Part shown: positions 857 to 62,935 of the stretch, piece after piece
Position numbering within the stretch: position 1 is the stretch's first letter
How the letters are laid out: the number at the start of each line of letters is the position of its first letter
Assembly: GCA_951406725.2 (NCBI GenBank)
Contig: OX597830.1
Location: 6,572,001 to 6,636,000 of the forward strand
DNA: 64,000 nt
DNA from: Octopus vulgaris
Taxonomy: Eukaryota
Direction of reading: 5' to 3'
Made by a program: the position numbers and the translations under genes
Notes under the pieces: generated by a model
The model's input: the letters and a program-made list of their open reading frames with translations, nothing else
Told to the model about the DNA's origin: nothing
The model's database searches: none

Positions 857-1146
857 TATTTCGTTTTGGGATTTGGTTTGCAAGATTCTTTATATGAGTT
901 CGTGTGTTGAATCATATTCTGTCGTGTCTGGGGAGAGTCATTTTCTTTTTGTGCCTTATAATATAACACATTCACCGGTAAAATTTCAAAAACTATTTCA
1001 AGAGTCAAAACTATTGAAAAGGTTGCAAGACGCAACGAAAATTTTAGGAAAATAAAAATAAGAAAAAAGTGGCAATTTTACCGGTGAATGTGTTATATTA
1101 TAAGGCGCAAAAAGGAAGTAACTCTCCTCAGACACAACAGCAATAC
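857..1146 (-). mobile_element. Fold-back element (PLE terminal-repeat derived); arms ~915-986 and ~1074-1146
   Basis: About 70-bp inverted arms; same family at 48533-48725; hammerhead-like motif at 1011-1047. Confidence 0.7.
1011..1047 (+). ncRNA. Minimal type I hammerhead-like motif, U3:A8 core variant
   Basis: cta-TTGAAAA-g-gttgc-aagac-gcaac-GAAA-at-TT-tag. Confidence 0.5.
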
Positions 1147-1225
1147 TTATAGTTACATTAATTTCAATGAGCGAACTGTTAAGTATTTTGGTAACGCTAC
1201 TTAGGTACCTATTATTATTATTATT

Positions 1226-1672
1226 TTGGCTTGGCTCAGATTTGGTCTTATCCCTGGTAGGAATTGAGTGGGTAGCGGGTTACTACCTGTAAGCTTAGAT
1301 ATCCACAAGTTCTCAGAAACTTTCAAGTGCTTAGATCCCTCCTGACAATCCTTGCTGTCCCTAAAGGACAGACTTTCTATAGGAGCTTTTCGGGGCATTC
1401 TATTTCAATCTCCTTTAGCCGTCTGATTATATCTTGGCTTATTGTTCCCAATGCACCGATTATTATAGGCATGACTTTTACAGCTCGAATGTTCCAAATT
1501 CTTCTTAATTCAAGCATTAAAGGATTGTATTTTGCTTCTTCCTCTTTCTTTACGATCCTGGAATCAAATAGGCATGATGTGTCGGTAAGCAACTTCGTTT
1601 TTCTTTATCTATGATGGTAATATCTGGTCTATTGTTTTCAAATTTCTTGTCCATTTGAATTGGAAATTCCCA
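1226..1672 (-). mobile_element. R4/Dong-like non-LTR retrotransposon 3' fragment (RLE domain + 3'UTR)
   Basis: Translates with disruptions to WEFPIQMDKKFENNRPD...KYNPLMLELRRIWNIRAVKVMPIIIGALG...LGTARIVRR; 3' end abuts (TAA)n. Confidence 0.85.
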
Positions 1673-1892
1673 TCATCATTATCATCATCATCATTATCAT
1701 CATCACTATCACCACCAACACCATCATTATCATCATCATAACCATCATTAGCATCATCATCACATCATTATCATCATCATCGTCATCGTCATCATTGTCA
1801 TCATTAAATGTATAGAGAAATGTGAAGTCTGAGAATATTATGCATAAGAAAAAATATCACCGTAATTAAATAGGTTCACCCTATTTAGTCGT

Positions 1893-2087
1893 TCTTCCTG
1901 CTGAAAATGGTAACCAAGTCTCTCTGAAATTGCACCAATCCGTCTTCAAAATGGAACGGCACATTACATAACATAATCCTATATATGTTGATGTTGAAGG
2001 AATAAAGAGTCCGGGTGGTCACGACTGGAATTTGTTTGATCTTAGATCTTCTCAATTATGGCTGACATCGGGTTAAGCAATAACAAC
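1893..2087 (+). mobile_element. Probable SINE/LINE 3' tail fragment ending in (CAA)-rich repeat (duplicated at ~3283-3478)
   Basis: ggtcacgactggaatttgtttgatc...ggctgacatcgggttaagcaataacaac resembles an RTE-type 3' tail. Confidence 0.45.
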
Positions 2088-2150
2088 AAAAATAATTTTA
2101 AAAAACAAACAGTAACAAGTACGAAGAAATAAAGTTGAAGAAAAATAAAT

Positions 2151-2315
2151 GATGAGAAGAAGAAGCAGAAGAAGAAGAAGAAGAAGAAGAAGAAGCAGAA
2201 GAAGAAGCAGAAGAAGAAGAATAAGAAGAAGAAGAAGAAGAACAACAACAACAACAACGACAACAACAACAAGAACAAGAAGAACAAGAAGAACAAGGAG
2301 GAGGAGGAGGAGGGG
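2151..2315. repeat. Compound (AAG)n(AAC)n(GAG)n microsatellite (copy at ~3542-3705)
   Basis: Direct reading. Confidence 0.95.
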
Positions 2316-2699
2316 GAGGATTAAAGTGATGCTGTTAATGAAAATAGAAAATTTTTTTAAATATTTAGAAACCAAGAATGAAGAAACAGGAAGGAAGAAA
2401 TGAAAAGATGAAAAGAGGAAAAGAAGAAAAAGAAGAAAAAAGAGGAAAAAGAAGGAAAGAATTAGCCAAATTTGTTCTTTATAATTAATTTCATTTTGAA
2501 AAACAATGACAAATTAATCGATCTGAAGTTGTGCGTTTATTTTAATTTTCTCTAATCATTAATACCATTATCATTATAGTAATTATAAAATGTTATTCCC
2601 TTCCGCCATCATAACCATTACGAGGAATGCCATGAACATCAACAAGACCAATACCACCACCACCACCACCAACACTACCATCGCTAACAACAATTACAA

Positions 2700-3048
2700 C
2701 AAGTGCTTAGATCGCTCCTGACAATCCTTGCTGTCCCTAAGGGACAGACTTTCTATAGGAGCTTTTCGGGGCATTCTATTTCAATCTCCTTTAGCCGTCT
2801 GATTATATCTTGGCTTATTGTTCCCAATGCACCGATTATTATAGGCATGACTTTTACAGCTCGAATGTTCCAAATTCTTCTTAATTCAAGCATTAAAGGA
2901 TTGTATTTTGCTTCTTCCTCTTTCTTTACGATCCTGGAATCAAATAGGCATGATGTGTCGGTAAGCAACTTCGTTTTTCCTTATCTATGATGATAATATC
3001 TGGTCTATTGTTTTCAAATTTCTTGTCCATTTGAATTGGAAATTCCCA
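2700..3048 (-). mobile_element. Duplicated RLE fragment lacking its 3'UTR
   Basis: Same peptide as 1377-1592; created by the tandem duplication. Confidence 0.85.
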
Positions 3049-60789: not shown

Positions 60790-60915
60790 AAACCAGTGTT
60801 GTTTTGTTTACGTCGCCGTAAAGAAACCTATACAATAAATACCAGGCTTAAACTATGTCCTGGAGTTGATCCGTTCGACTAAACTTCTTCAAGATGGTGC
60901 CCCAGCATGGCAGCA
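60790..60915 (+). mobile_element. SINE family A, 3' fragment
   Basis: ttcgactaaacttcttcaagatggtgccccagcatggc. Confidence 0.65.
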
Positions 60916-61231
60916 TTCTGATGATTTCATATAGATTTGTTCGCTCTTCCCAAATCACTTTTTCGCAGCTCACTACAGTCTGCATCACATTTTATCCTTG
61001 GTGTTCATCCGCCTTTCATTATAATGTAATAATTGACAATTAAACAGATCAATATTCGAGGGGAATCGATCACTACAAAAGATTTTAAGGCAGTTGTGAG
61101 GACACAAATGCCTTTAAATATATACTGTTGCGATATCAATAATAATCGCAATTGTCTTGGAGGCTCTAAAATCCATAAAATGGCCGTCTCTCATAGGTTT
61201 CTCTCTCTGTCTTTTTTAGTATTTCGTTTGT

Positions 61232-61383
61232 TTAACGCTCTGAGTTCAAATTCCAACGAGGTTGATTTTGCCTTTCATCCTTTTGGAGTCGATGAAATAG
61301 GTTTAAGCTGAACACAAGGGTCGACATAATTGACTTAGCCCTTCCCCGAAATTGTTGCTCCTGTAACACCAAAATTAGAAACC
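61232..61383 (+). mobile_element. SINE family B, 5'-truncated
   Basis: ctctgagttcaaattccaacgaggttgattttgcctttcatcc. Confidence 0.82.
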
Positions 61384-61788
61384 GATGTATGTAGTATGAT
61401 ACACGCATGCGCGCGCGCACATGATCAGAGAGACTCCAATGACGCTCGTGTTGCACCGCGTGAGCAAGATTTACATTTTGTAATAGAACCAGAACAGAAC
61501 AGTGAACTCAATATGAGGAGAGGAAAATCTGCCGTTGTCGACTAATACAAGACGAATTTCGAGGATTAAAAATTCCATGTAAAACGCAGCAAGATTCGGA
61601 CATAGATATGGAGGCTGTTTGAATGTTTGCACCACAGGTTTCCACTATAAAATTCGTCAATTTGTATAATGGAAAATACGAGATATGTATGTGTTCATGT
61701 GTGTGTTTCAGTGTACATACAAAAATATATGTTTGCATATTGATTATATATATATATATATATATATATATATATGTATGTATATACA

Positions 61789-61990
61789 AACAATTGCAGC
61801 GTGGAAGGTGTTTGTAAGCCATTTAAGAAACACACAAAAGCCGTTCGATTCACTTCAACATTTAAGTTTAATTTGTCAAAATATTTTCGAGCTAAATGGC
61901 TTACAAACACCTTCCACGCTGCAATTGTTTTCGTTCTAGCACACGATCTCAGATCAAATCACTTGCTATGCGAGTACTTCTCCCTATATC
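61789..61990 (+). mobile_element. Fold-back element in (TA)n, same family as 23851-24165
   Basis: Arms 61789-61825 and 61893-61929; same tail. Confidence 0.85.
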
Positions 61991-62057
61991 ATATATATAT
62001 ATATATATATATATATATATATATATATATATATATATATATATATATATATATATA

Positions 62058-62523
62058 ATATACAAAAAGCAATAAAGATTCAAGTTAATTTAAATGAATT
62101 TACTTGAATATGGTACCTAACTTAGATGCACCAAAAAAAACTATACTGATTTAACAATACAGTAATGTGGGGTGATTATAGCGAGAATGAAGCAACAAGA
62201 ATGGATAGGTTTTAGTACAATCGTTTCATACAAGGACAGGTTTATAGTTAGCAAATTACAGCATATAAACGTGTCCCGTACTCATCAGCTAAAATACATG
62301 TGAGTTCTCTAGACATCCTAGTGGTTGAGGCTATACTACATTATCTACATTACTTCATGAGTATAGCCTCAACCACTAGGATGTCTAGAGAACTCACATG
62401 TATTTTAGCTGATGAGTACGGGACACGTTTATATGCTGTAATTTTTGCAACTTTTAATAAAACCTGTCCTTGTATGAAACGATTGTACTAAAAACCTATC
62501 CATTCTTGTTGCTTCATTCTCGC
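62058..62523 (-). mobile_element. Fold-back element in (TA)n; arms 62181-62337 and 62360-62523, tail 62058-62180
   Basis: About 160-bp near-perfect arms, each with a hammerhead. Confidence 0.9.
62403..62493 (+). ncRNA. Type I hammerhead ribozyme motif with long stem II (partner on minus at 62210-62294)
   Basis: ttttag-CTGATGA-gtacgggac...gtccttgtat-GAAA-cgattg-TA-ctaaaa. Confidence 0.75.
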
Positions 62524-62654
62524 GTATATATATATATATATATAATCAATATGCAAACATATATTTTTGTATGTACACAGAAACACACACATGAACACAT
62601 ACATATATATATAAATATATATATATATAATATGTATTACATATAATTATATAT

Positions 62655-62935
62655 GGTTTACTGTTGTGTTAAGGCAAGGTAACAAAATAAATAAGAATTC
62701 CATCCAGGGAAAGATAACTGTCATTTGATATACACAGTATAAATCTACAACCTACCCTTAATTCCTTGCATAGGAGAGGCGGGTCAAGGCAGGATCTTAT
62801 AGCATACCTCGTGGCTCAAGGCGTGAGGATTGTTTGGAGATAAAGCATGTTATAAAACCTGCCCTAACACGCGTCTCCAATGCAAGAAACTCTAAGAAGT
62901 TCGTATCTTTAAACTGTCAACATGTCAACATTGTA
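62655..62935. mobile_element. Old fold-back insert between (TA)n tracts; arms 62762-62805 and 62847-62889
   Basis: ttccttgcataggagaggcgggtcaaggcagg versus the reverse complement of cctgccctaacacgcgtctccaatgcaagaa. Confidence 0.55.

Follow-up and report, generated by a model that had tools for sequence, protein, structure and literature searches.

Penelope-like ancestry of fold-backs in an octopus window

What kind of element plants long hairpins in microsatellite DNA, and how is the hairpin made? We asked this of a 64-kb stretch of the Octopus vulgaris genome (contig OX597830.1, positions 6,572,001 to 6,636,000; hereafter the window). In this AT-rich, microsatellite-packed DNA an earlier note had listed about 15 inverted-repeat elements from about a dozen unrelated families, most with an inverted arm, a loop, a direct arm and a unique tail between (TA)n tracts, and had proposed that they are insertions of Penelope-like elements (PLEs) carrying hammerhead ribozymes. 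Our analysis leaves little doubt about the PLE origin of the fold-backs. They are very probably 5'-truncated PLE insertions in which the hairpin was likely remade at each insertion, and the non-coding monomers among them likely borrow PLE enzymes.

Self-BLAST of the window with simple repeats filtered recovered local fold-backs at ten of the 15 listed sites (915-1145, 6922-7165, 7368-7868, 10850-11178, 22838-23040, 23848-24110, 24312-24617, 46026-46184, 61788-61930 and 62177-62528), and another, at 41095, was evident from inspection of the sequence. The earlier count stood for these 11 clear fold-backs. The hairpins at 31392 and 62762 were short or degenerate, the plan of the latter being clear only from other copies; the element at 48321 was an inversion whose arms scarcely overlap and form almost no hairpin; and the one at 55324 was a single truncated monomer with an 11-bp internal hairpin. 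Self-BLAST also found a fold-back absent from the first list, at 49160-49434. Two neighbouring 10-kb regions contained no fold-backs under the filter that gave ten rows in the window, one of those ten being a simple-repeat match.

Counting the 49160 element the number of families is 14, in keeping with the dozen claimed. First-look searches of the animal's own genome (2.8 Gb, 227 contigs) returned candidate counts that are lower bounds: at least 578 for family A (the element at 915), 3681 for B (7371), 1669 for C (62181), 1796 for D (23851 and 61789), 1513 for E (6931), 2859 for F (10850), 2414 for G (22839), 893 for H (24327), 281 for I (41095), 2187 for J (46026), 994 for K (55324), 171 for the 49160 family and 112 for the 62762 family, with the 31392 family outside these counts. 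Exact-pattern matches numbered 1583 for I (a 37-mer), 580 for C and 1675 for J.

Extension beyond the repeats, of the kind suggested as a check, supported the continuation of four families (B, C, I and J) into open reading frames (ORFs) of Hydra-clade PLEs, predicted to encode a reverse transcriptase (RT) and a GIY-YIG endonuclease (EN). Their copies in the window are a family B fold-back (7368-8005, + strand), the 3' end of a Hydra-type PLE; a family C fold-back (62056-62528, − strand), the 3' end of a young Hydra PLE; a mini fold-back of family I (41024-41227, − strand), the 3' end of a very young one; and a family J fold-back in (TA)n (46026-46278, + strand). Family B runs upstream without a break into CxCX5C zinc-finger and GIY-YIG remnants (L061/L064), and J is linked to RT/EN remnants (L335, L336). 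A near-complete copy of C (L125; 4.7-kb unit) consists of an inverted pseudo-long terminal repeat (pLTR), a direct pLTR with tail, a frameshifted ORF, a 3' region and a pLTR. Family I has an intact ORF of 710 amino acids (L331:1813-3993). RT and C-terminal GIY-YIG lie in a single ORF, intact in L331, frameshifted in L125 and as remnants in L061/L064 and L335. The ORF of family C (L125:2046-4435) contains two long Asn-rich stretches, as in rotifer Penelope elements.

The parents of B, C, I and J resemble the Hydra clade as set out in the available part of Craig et al. 2021 (PMC8557442), which reports inverted truncated copies, tails of 30-40 bp, hammerheads, (TA)n targets and the element Hydra-1_Obim. 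Shared with that clade are the order RT then GIY-YIG and the motifs RWK, DKT, CxCX5C, CxxC and CxH. RWK and DKT (replacing DKG) are present in L331 and L125, this region not having been recovered for B and J; CxCX5C and CxxC occur in the parents of all four families; and CxH is found in L331 and L125 and not in the L335 or L061 remnants. As regards the CCHH motif of the endonuclease, which Hydra elements lack, inspection by eye showed no cysteine within the GIY-YIG core of L331 and single ones in L125 and L061. The proteins resemble Hydra-1_Obim, again in a by-eye comparison. All four families combine a pLTR hammerhead with (TA)n insertion, as Hydra elements do, and the canonical pLTR hammerhead, the inverted 5'-truncated copy and the tail are likewise common to the clade and the elements here. 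Assignment to Naiad or Chlamys does not fit, the ORF-linked parents having a C-terminal EN and hammerheads; an assignment to Neptune was considered and dropped on the Hydra motifs.

In contrast to the Hydra elements in that account, the ORF-linked families have tails of 64-140 nt instead of 30-40, the 4.7-kb unit of family C contains long stretches rich in Asn, and most copies are very short stubs. They also extend the described membership by several further families, of which at least two are young. Canonical Penelope, in the sections of Arkhipova et al. 2013 (PMC3846280) that treat its inverted pLTR, tail, target-site duplication (TSD) and N-rich ORF inserts, resembles the elements here in having an inverted pLTR without a tail, a TSD of 8-10 bp around the whole insert and N-rich inserts in the ORF, and differs from our families, which number hundreds to thousands of copies each.

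A homologue search with the intact ORF gave 1938 matches, nearly all unnamed among the 120 listed, and confirmed a large family; a PDB sequence search with the RT returned nothing useful. The intact L331 ORF matched no Pfam model at E 1, yet has these 1938 relatives, and domain-based annotation will therefore overlook such elements. In its accessible text an annotation of octopus repeats (PMC13282606) counts 31 PLE families with recent activity and leaves hammerheads unmentioned.

Fixed ends and variable tips

To describe the geometry of the hairpins we used 62 young fold-backs, 31 of family I and 31 of family C, taken from top BLAST hits. The outer end of the inverted arm was fixed in nearly all copies, at −121 in C and −66 in I, and each of the ten families examined had such a fixed end. 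Tips, by contrast, ranged from about −130 to beyond −3400. Within an element the two tips nevertheless tended to agree: they differed by 30 nt or less (|a−b|) in 20/31 fold-backs of family I and 17/31 of family C, against permutation means of 6.2 and 3.1, giving 37 of 62 near-perfect tips where 9.3 were expected. The inverted arm was the longer in 15 fold-backs and the direct arm in ten. Private variants were common to both arms of an element at 0.93 per kb in I and 6.06 per kb in C, compared with 0.05 and 0.42 per kb in shuffled pairs, so that sharing in paired arms was about 15-20 times that of shuffled ones. The explanation of the inverted arms by the inverted 5' segment of a PLE insertion agrees with the anatomy, the fixed ends and the variable tips.

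If the short copies were instead self-propagating, non-autonomous units copied whole, in the manner of miniature inverted-repeat transposable elements (MITEs) or fold-back elements, their junctions should travel with them. Two window junctions do recur at unlinked loci, one 5' start is often common to family D copies, and families F, G and K are non-coding. The recurrences amount to merely 2 of about 580 tail matches for one junction and 5 of about 1583 for the other; nine of ten printed mini junctions of family I differ from one another; and asymmetric arms, a one-sided tail and a continuum of lengths up to full elements do not fit copying as a unit. In place of the fixed length, symmetric terminal inverted repeats and shared interior of MITEs we found one-sided tails, tips that vary from copy to copy and, in the window copies, junctions that are as rare genome-wide as these counts show. 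The stubs are therefore not copied as units and are not MITEs, as the earlier note had anticipated. We consider whole-unit copying very improbable overall, and it is largely refuted for C and I. In repeat annotation they belong under the ends of PLEs or retrozymes.

The picture of a distinct class of non-coding mini-elements was not supported: in C and I the stubs are the smallest members of a graded series that extends to 6-kb fold-backs and full-length elements. These families also yielded giant fold-backs, at L127, L333 and L362, some with arms longer than a whole unit. The family C fold-back at L127 (G000:C7:33522200-33531700) spans 6.3 kb, with 2.8-kb arms that are 99.6% alike.

Hammerhead motifs

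A strict type I descriptor matched the window twice (−7483 and −62288), against a mean of 0.02 in 50 shuffles. A relaxed descriptor gave six matches (+7749, −7483, +62409, −62288, −46097 and +47665), compared with a mean of 0.5 in 20 shuffles. Two further hammerheads, +41160 and −55552, were recognized by eye and missed by both descriptors. At the detected motifs the outward orientation from the loop held, as had been claimed. The idea that every element carries a hammerhead did not survive: family G is without one, and many window copies hold dead or half motifs only (those at 10850, 23851, 24327, 49160 and 62762). A CTGATGA in the arms of the 6931 element (7115/6972) has no GAAA partner and is not a core, because this family E copy is truncated downstream of the real hammerhead.

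Two core variants stood out. In family A a U3-A8 core was found in 17 of 20 readable copies, and in family D a G3-C8 core (G-T-G-purine-N-C-A) was present in 16 of 21, within a hammerhead-like motif whose stem I is 7 bp long and whose stem III is palindromic. According to the part of Cervera and de la Pena 2014 at hand (PMC4209133), PLE minimal hammerheads include a U3-A8 variant, have low in vitro activity and occur as opposite-strand pairs 100-700 bp apart, ascribed to truncated PLEs. Natural U3-A8 hammerheads are also among those described in the portion of Perreault 2011 consulted. The motifs here share with the PLE minimal hammerheads of PMC4209133 the bulged base after A9, the palindromic stem III, the U3-A8 core and the opposite-strand pairs; family D differs from them, in the sections concerned, in its G3-C8 core, which is known as a laboratory variant from the accessible text of PMC3884650. 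Our literature search found this variant only and no natural G3-C8 hammerhead. A study of PLE hammerhead variants by Lunse et al. in 2017 reportedly may cover G3-C8.

An Rfam scan of the window gave just microRNA matches on simple repeats among the 150 of 399 rows listed, and at gathering threshold 11 loci gave no matches; Rfam models therefore miss these minimal hammerheads. Single-strand folds were no better than shuffles for most motifs. The hammerhead is predicted from its sequence to process a tandem precursor RNA, probably as a dimer formed through the palindromic stem III.

Judging from the stubs, most templates had not been cut at the hammerhead site. None of 29 position-ordered family I elements ends exactly at the predicted cut (−109), the nearest ending at −114, and none of 30 position-ordered family C elements ends exactly at its predicted cut site. 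In family I, the starts of 19 of the 29 fall between −130 and −162, immediately 5' of the core (−138). Family C has no 5'-end cluster, and its furthest 5' ends are spread between −216 and positions beyond −1600. The idea of a 5'-end hot spot ahead of the hammerhead as a general rule, which we considered, holds for I and D and fails for C.

The start sites of I and D raise the possibility that the shortest fold-backs are run-off products at a transcript 5' end, with priming in the upstream pLTR and cDNAs that fall off just ahead of the hammerhead. The 19 of 29 direct arms of family I that start at −130 to −162 have a TATA-like run about 10-25 nt further up, and nine of 12 aligned family D loci share a start about 18 nt before stem I. 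Family C has no such cluster, and pausing of the RT once past the ribozyme structure would leave an identical pattern. We regard run-off as a possibility that deserves attention, with the balance tilted against it.

Target sites and tails

The claim of (TA)n targeting held for B, C, E, G, H, I and J and failed for A (915), D (23851/61789) and F (10850), whose 3' ends lie within (TA)n at only 5 of 25, 6 of 30 and 1 of 25 loci, respectively. These three families instead show TSD-like repeats of at least 8 bp, often 8-15 bp, in 10/16 (A), 8/16 (D) and 10/19 (F) fold-backs. They thereby share the TSD pattern of canonical Penelope described in the relevant part of PMC3846280; no ORF is linked to them. 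We had considered that a self-complementary (TA)n target is needed for fold-back, and this is ruled out by A, D and F. A short interspersed nuclear element (SINE) with an internal (TA)n tract occupies about a dozen sites in the window (for example 10288-10725, 14573-14980, 23113-23485 and 28996-29385), and several PLE stubs lie inside or beside (TA)n tracts of this common SINE, which looks octopus-like.

The unique tail, put at 65-180 bp in the earlier note, is indeed one-sided; the '180-bp' tail at 23851 consists of about 60 bp of element followed by flanking DNA. Seven families (A, D, F, G, H, I and J) have tails of 54-66 nt; those of C, B and E measure 121, about 140 and about 164 nt. The tail of C and I is the start of the next unit and continues into the ORF. 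The recurrence of a 54-66-nt tail in seven unrelated families hints at a fixed spacing of two priming sites, imposed by the enzyme or the RNA.

A proposed route of insertion

The following route accommodates the observed anatomy and ORF links, the ends that are fixed and the tips that are not, and the variants common to both arms; we infer every enzymatic step and any cleavage in it from sequence. The GIY-YIG endonuclease would nick the target, which is (TA)n in most families and, in A, D and F, AT-rich DNA cut with a stagger of 8-15 bp. In a tandem or circular RNA, the beginning of the following unit would base-pair over 2-4 TA bases with one target 3' end, giving rise to the tail. Reverse transcription would pass the uncut hammerhead and usually halt early. 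A second fixed site, 54-164 nt further upstream in that RNA, would serve for priming from the other target end. Of the two cDNAs, the longer would then snap back at a small palindrome, copy itself and pair with the other, to yield inverted arm, loop, direct arm and tail in that order. The hammerhead in a genomic stub would be a passenger.

The alternative is that only one end is RNA-primed. The first cDNA would snap back and copy itself up to the fixed upstream site, the endonuclease or TA microhomology would join it to the other target end, and longer inverted arms would be later deletions in the palindrome. This agrees with the 37 of 62 tips that are near-perfect hairpins, often at palindromes of the element, with the private variants common to both arms, and with the EN-mediated tail resolution proposed in the part of Craig et al. 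consulted (PMC8557442). Hairpin tips followed by a jump were seen at L337 and L350. The inverted arm extends further 5' in 15 of 62 fold-backs, and in L333 it exceeds the whole unit, being longer than its partner by more than 1.2 kb and crossing a tandem junction; L331 ends at the second site, −66, without a tail; and an identical base change sits at the junction of 19 of 25 inverted ends of family C and is absent from 42 direct arms. These four observations are difficult to explain with a single primed end and are the reason that we lean, by a little, towards priming at both ends, with pure snap-back and later deletion a serious contender of lower probability.

Several points weigh against this account of the insertions. 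No ORF was linked to A, D, E, H or the 49160, 62762 and 31392 families within 1.5-kb flanks searched without walking, and Pfam matches were feeble (RVT_1 at E 0.003, GIY-YIG at E 0.03, the intact ORF none). Target self-complementarity is dispensable, because A, D and F fold back without (TA)n. The top-hit sets of C and I are biased towards copies no shorter than the query; in addition, four loci had their tips placed manually, and the geometry counts exclude one ambiguous locus (L354). In family J, 28 loci of a position-ordered sample were mapped (2/30 being unmappable), and 10/28 reach no further 5' than positions between −81 and −149, so that they end within the hammerhead or downstream of it; read-through may therefore not apply to every family. 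Finally, unstable palindromes may have suffered deletions after insertion that left the tips asymmetric, and gene conversion could account for the private variants common to both arms. Two-ended priming and pure snap-back are therefore not distinguishable from genome sequence by itself.

Hydra PLE hammerheads, (TA)n targets, inverted 5'-truncated copies, tails and opposite-strand pairs are already known from published work. To this the present analysis adds the junction statistics, the G3-C8 core and family G, and it enlarges both the Hydra clade and the retrozymes by new members. The origin of tandem and inverted structures and the microsatellite bias are named as open in the available part of Craig et al. 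2021 (PMC8557442). If true, two-ended priming would supply the long-missing explanation of inverted pLTRs and tails in PLEs. The two young families, of which one combines an intact ORF with 1583 exact matches to a 37-mer, are a ready substrate for such questions of PLE insertion and make sharp predictions: ends at 0 and −66, hairpin tips and one template. Transcribed fold-backs would be expected to yield long double-stranded RNA, a possible substrate for editing or silencing.

Non-coding tandem monomers

Families F, G and K are non-coding tandem monomers and likely borrow PLE enzymes. EN matches beside loci of G, H and K, of uncertain colinearity with the element, were not counted as links. 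The family F fold-back (10849-11229, + strand) derives from a retrozyme-like tandem monomer of about 325-340 nt and has a TSD of about 12 bp, not (TA)n. Partial tandems of this family were found; the hammerhead core is dead in the window copy and canonical in most other copies by alignment. Family K is represented by a truncated copy without fold-back (55309-55817, − strand; hammerhead −55552) of a young, retrozyme-like 559-nt monomer that forms tandem arrays with no linked ORF. The copy is flanked by a 350-bp direct duplication (54977-55324 and 55814-56163; 97% alike), which comprises a SINE piece and (TA)n and resembles a very long target duplication from a truncated cDNA joining upstream flanking DNA.

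Like the non-LTR retrozymes in the accessible text of PMC7229834 and bioRxiv 10.64898/2026.07.22.740005, which both propose that PLEs move them, F (~330 nt) and K (559 nt) are non-coding head-to-tail units with a type I hammerhead. Unlike the retrozymes of these accounts, F and K show the PLE signature of inverted arm plus tail directly, and K exceeds the 170-400 nt reported. This PLE insertion signature on retrozyme-type monomers supports PLE-driven mobility of retrozymes.

Family G is represented by a fold-back in (TA)n (22838-23108, + strand), the 3' part of a tandem monomer in which no hammerhead was found. Longer copies reveal a head-to-tail monomer of about 322 nt, most of 30 extending into the end of the previous monomer. 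Two TA sites, separated by about 66 nt, form the ends of the copies, and inverted arms are frequent. The monomer alignment contained no canonical, U3-A8 or G3-C8 core, a hammerhead descriptor matched one of 25 loci, and Rfam gave no ribozyme match; family G thus lacks the hammerhead per monomer expected of a retrozyme. It has a tRNA-like module instead, recognized by ARAGORN in 1/9 loci at default and in 17/30 at relaxed threshold, and matched in Rfam by its T-arm only. The module lies in a conserved outer stem of about 20 bp with little compensatory change and is followed by a T-run. Contigs from sequencing runs that match families I and G indicate presence only and do not enter the evidence, and a single short contig that stops at this T-run is too slight to count.

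The A and B boxes of tRNA-derived SINEs are present in family G, whereas a tRNA head at the start and a tail that is LINE-derived (from a long interspersed nuclear element) or a simple repeat are not. As far as the accessible parts of PMC10886601 go, tRNA-derived SINEs and Helenus/Ajax, which are non-autonomous LTR elements derived from small RNAs, share with family G a tRNA-like module, A- and B-box-like motifs and a non-coding retroposed unit; family G differs from them in that the module is internal to a tandem monomer with PLE-type ends, there is no LINE tail or LTR, and it has no hammerhead. Our literature search, with subscription journals, Repbase and Dfam outside it, found no tRNA-bearing element moved by PLEs. 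Schistosoma SM-alpha, with RNA polymerase III (Pol III) boxes and a hammerhead, is a near-precedent. Taken jointly, the propositions that family G is a new PLE-moved element in which the module replaces the hammerhead, whether by acting as a Pol III promoter or by marking the precursor for host nucleases of tRNA processing that would cut out the monomers, and that both ends are primed on one RNA in the young Hydra families, are doubtful. Family G may nonetheless widen the range of RNAs that PLE enzymes can move.

Individual elements of the window

In the ORF-linked copies, the family B element has hammerheads at +7749 and −7483 and a tail of about 140 nt, and its inverted arm stops at an internal (TA)4-5 run. 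Family C carries hammerheads at −62288 and +62409 and a 121-nt tail. The family I copy has a complete hammerhead (+41160) within its inverted arm and a 66-nt tail, and the family J copy a hammerhead (−46097) in its inverted arm and a tail of 64 nt. A second family J copy (48313-48529, + strand) is composed of an inverted piece (48313-48415) and a direct piece (48421-48529) with little overlap.

The family A fold-back (857-1145, − strand) has its tail at 857-914, a direct arm at 915-990 and a longer inverted arm at 1001-1145, which contains a hammerhead-like motif with a U3-A8 core at about 1014-1050 on the + strand; an imperfect TSD of about 10 bp, not (TA)n, lies at its flanks. A second family A copy (48527-48796, − strand) is without inversion. 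Family D is present as a fold-back (23851-24167, + strand) with a tail of about 60 nt, in which the family's G3-C8 hammerhead-like motif has decayed, and as a second fold-back recovered by self-BLAST (61788-61986, + strand). Homology to family D ends at query base ~172, and 24168-24290 is flanking DNA. An old family-D-like fragment with a G3-C8 hammerhead-like core (47660-47726, + strand) was absent from the first list.

The family E fold-back in (TA)n (6922-7335, + strand) has a tail of about 164 nt and is truncated downstream of the family hammerhead. Family H, also a fold-back in (TA)n (24316-24683, + strand; tail 65 nt), retains just the 3' half of its family's canonical hammerhead. The degenerate short hairpin at 31392 (31219-31465, − strand), with (TA)n at its left end, belongs to a further family of which three other copies were met by chance in fetched loci. 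An old fold-back family is represented at 62650-62935 (− strand), with a left-side tail, degenerate arms and a decayed hammerhead core. The older fold-back at 49160-49445 (+ strand) has a tail interrupted by a SINE, and a longer copy (L479) has a canonical hammerhead upstream.

The window also contains a tandem duplication of about 1.39 kb (1324-2702 and 2700-4088; 98% alike), which includes a LINE-like fragment and microsatellites and is either a recent duplication or an assembly artefact.

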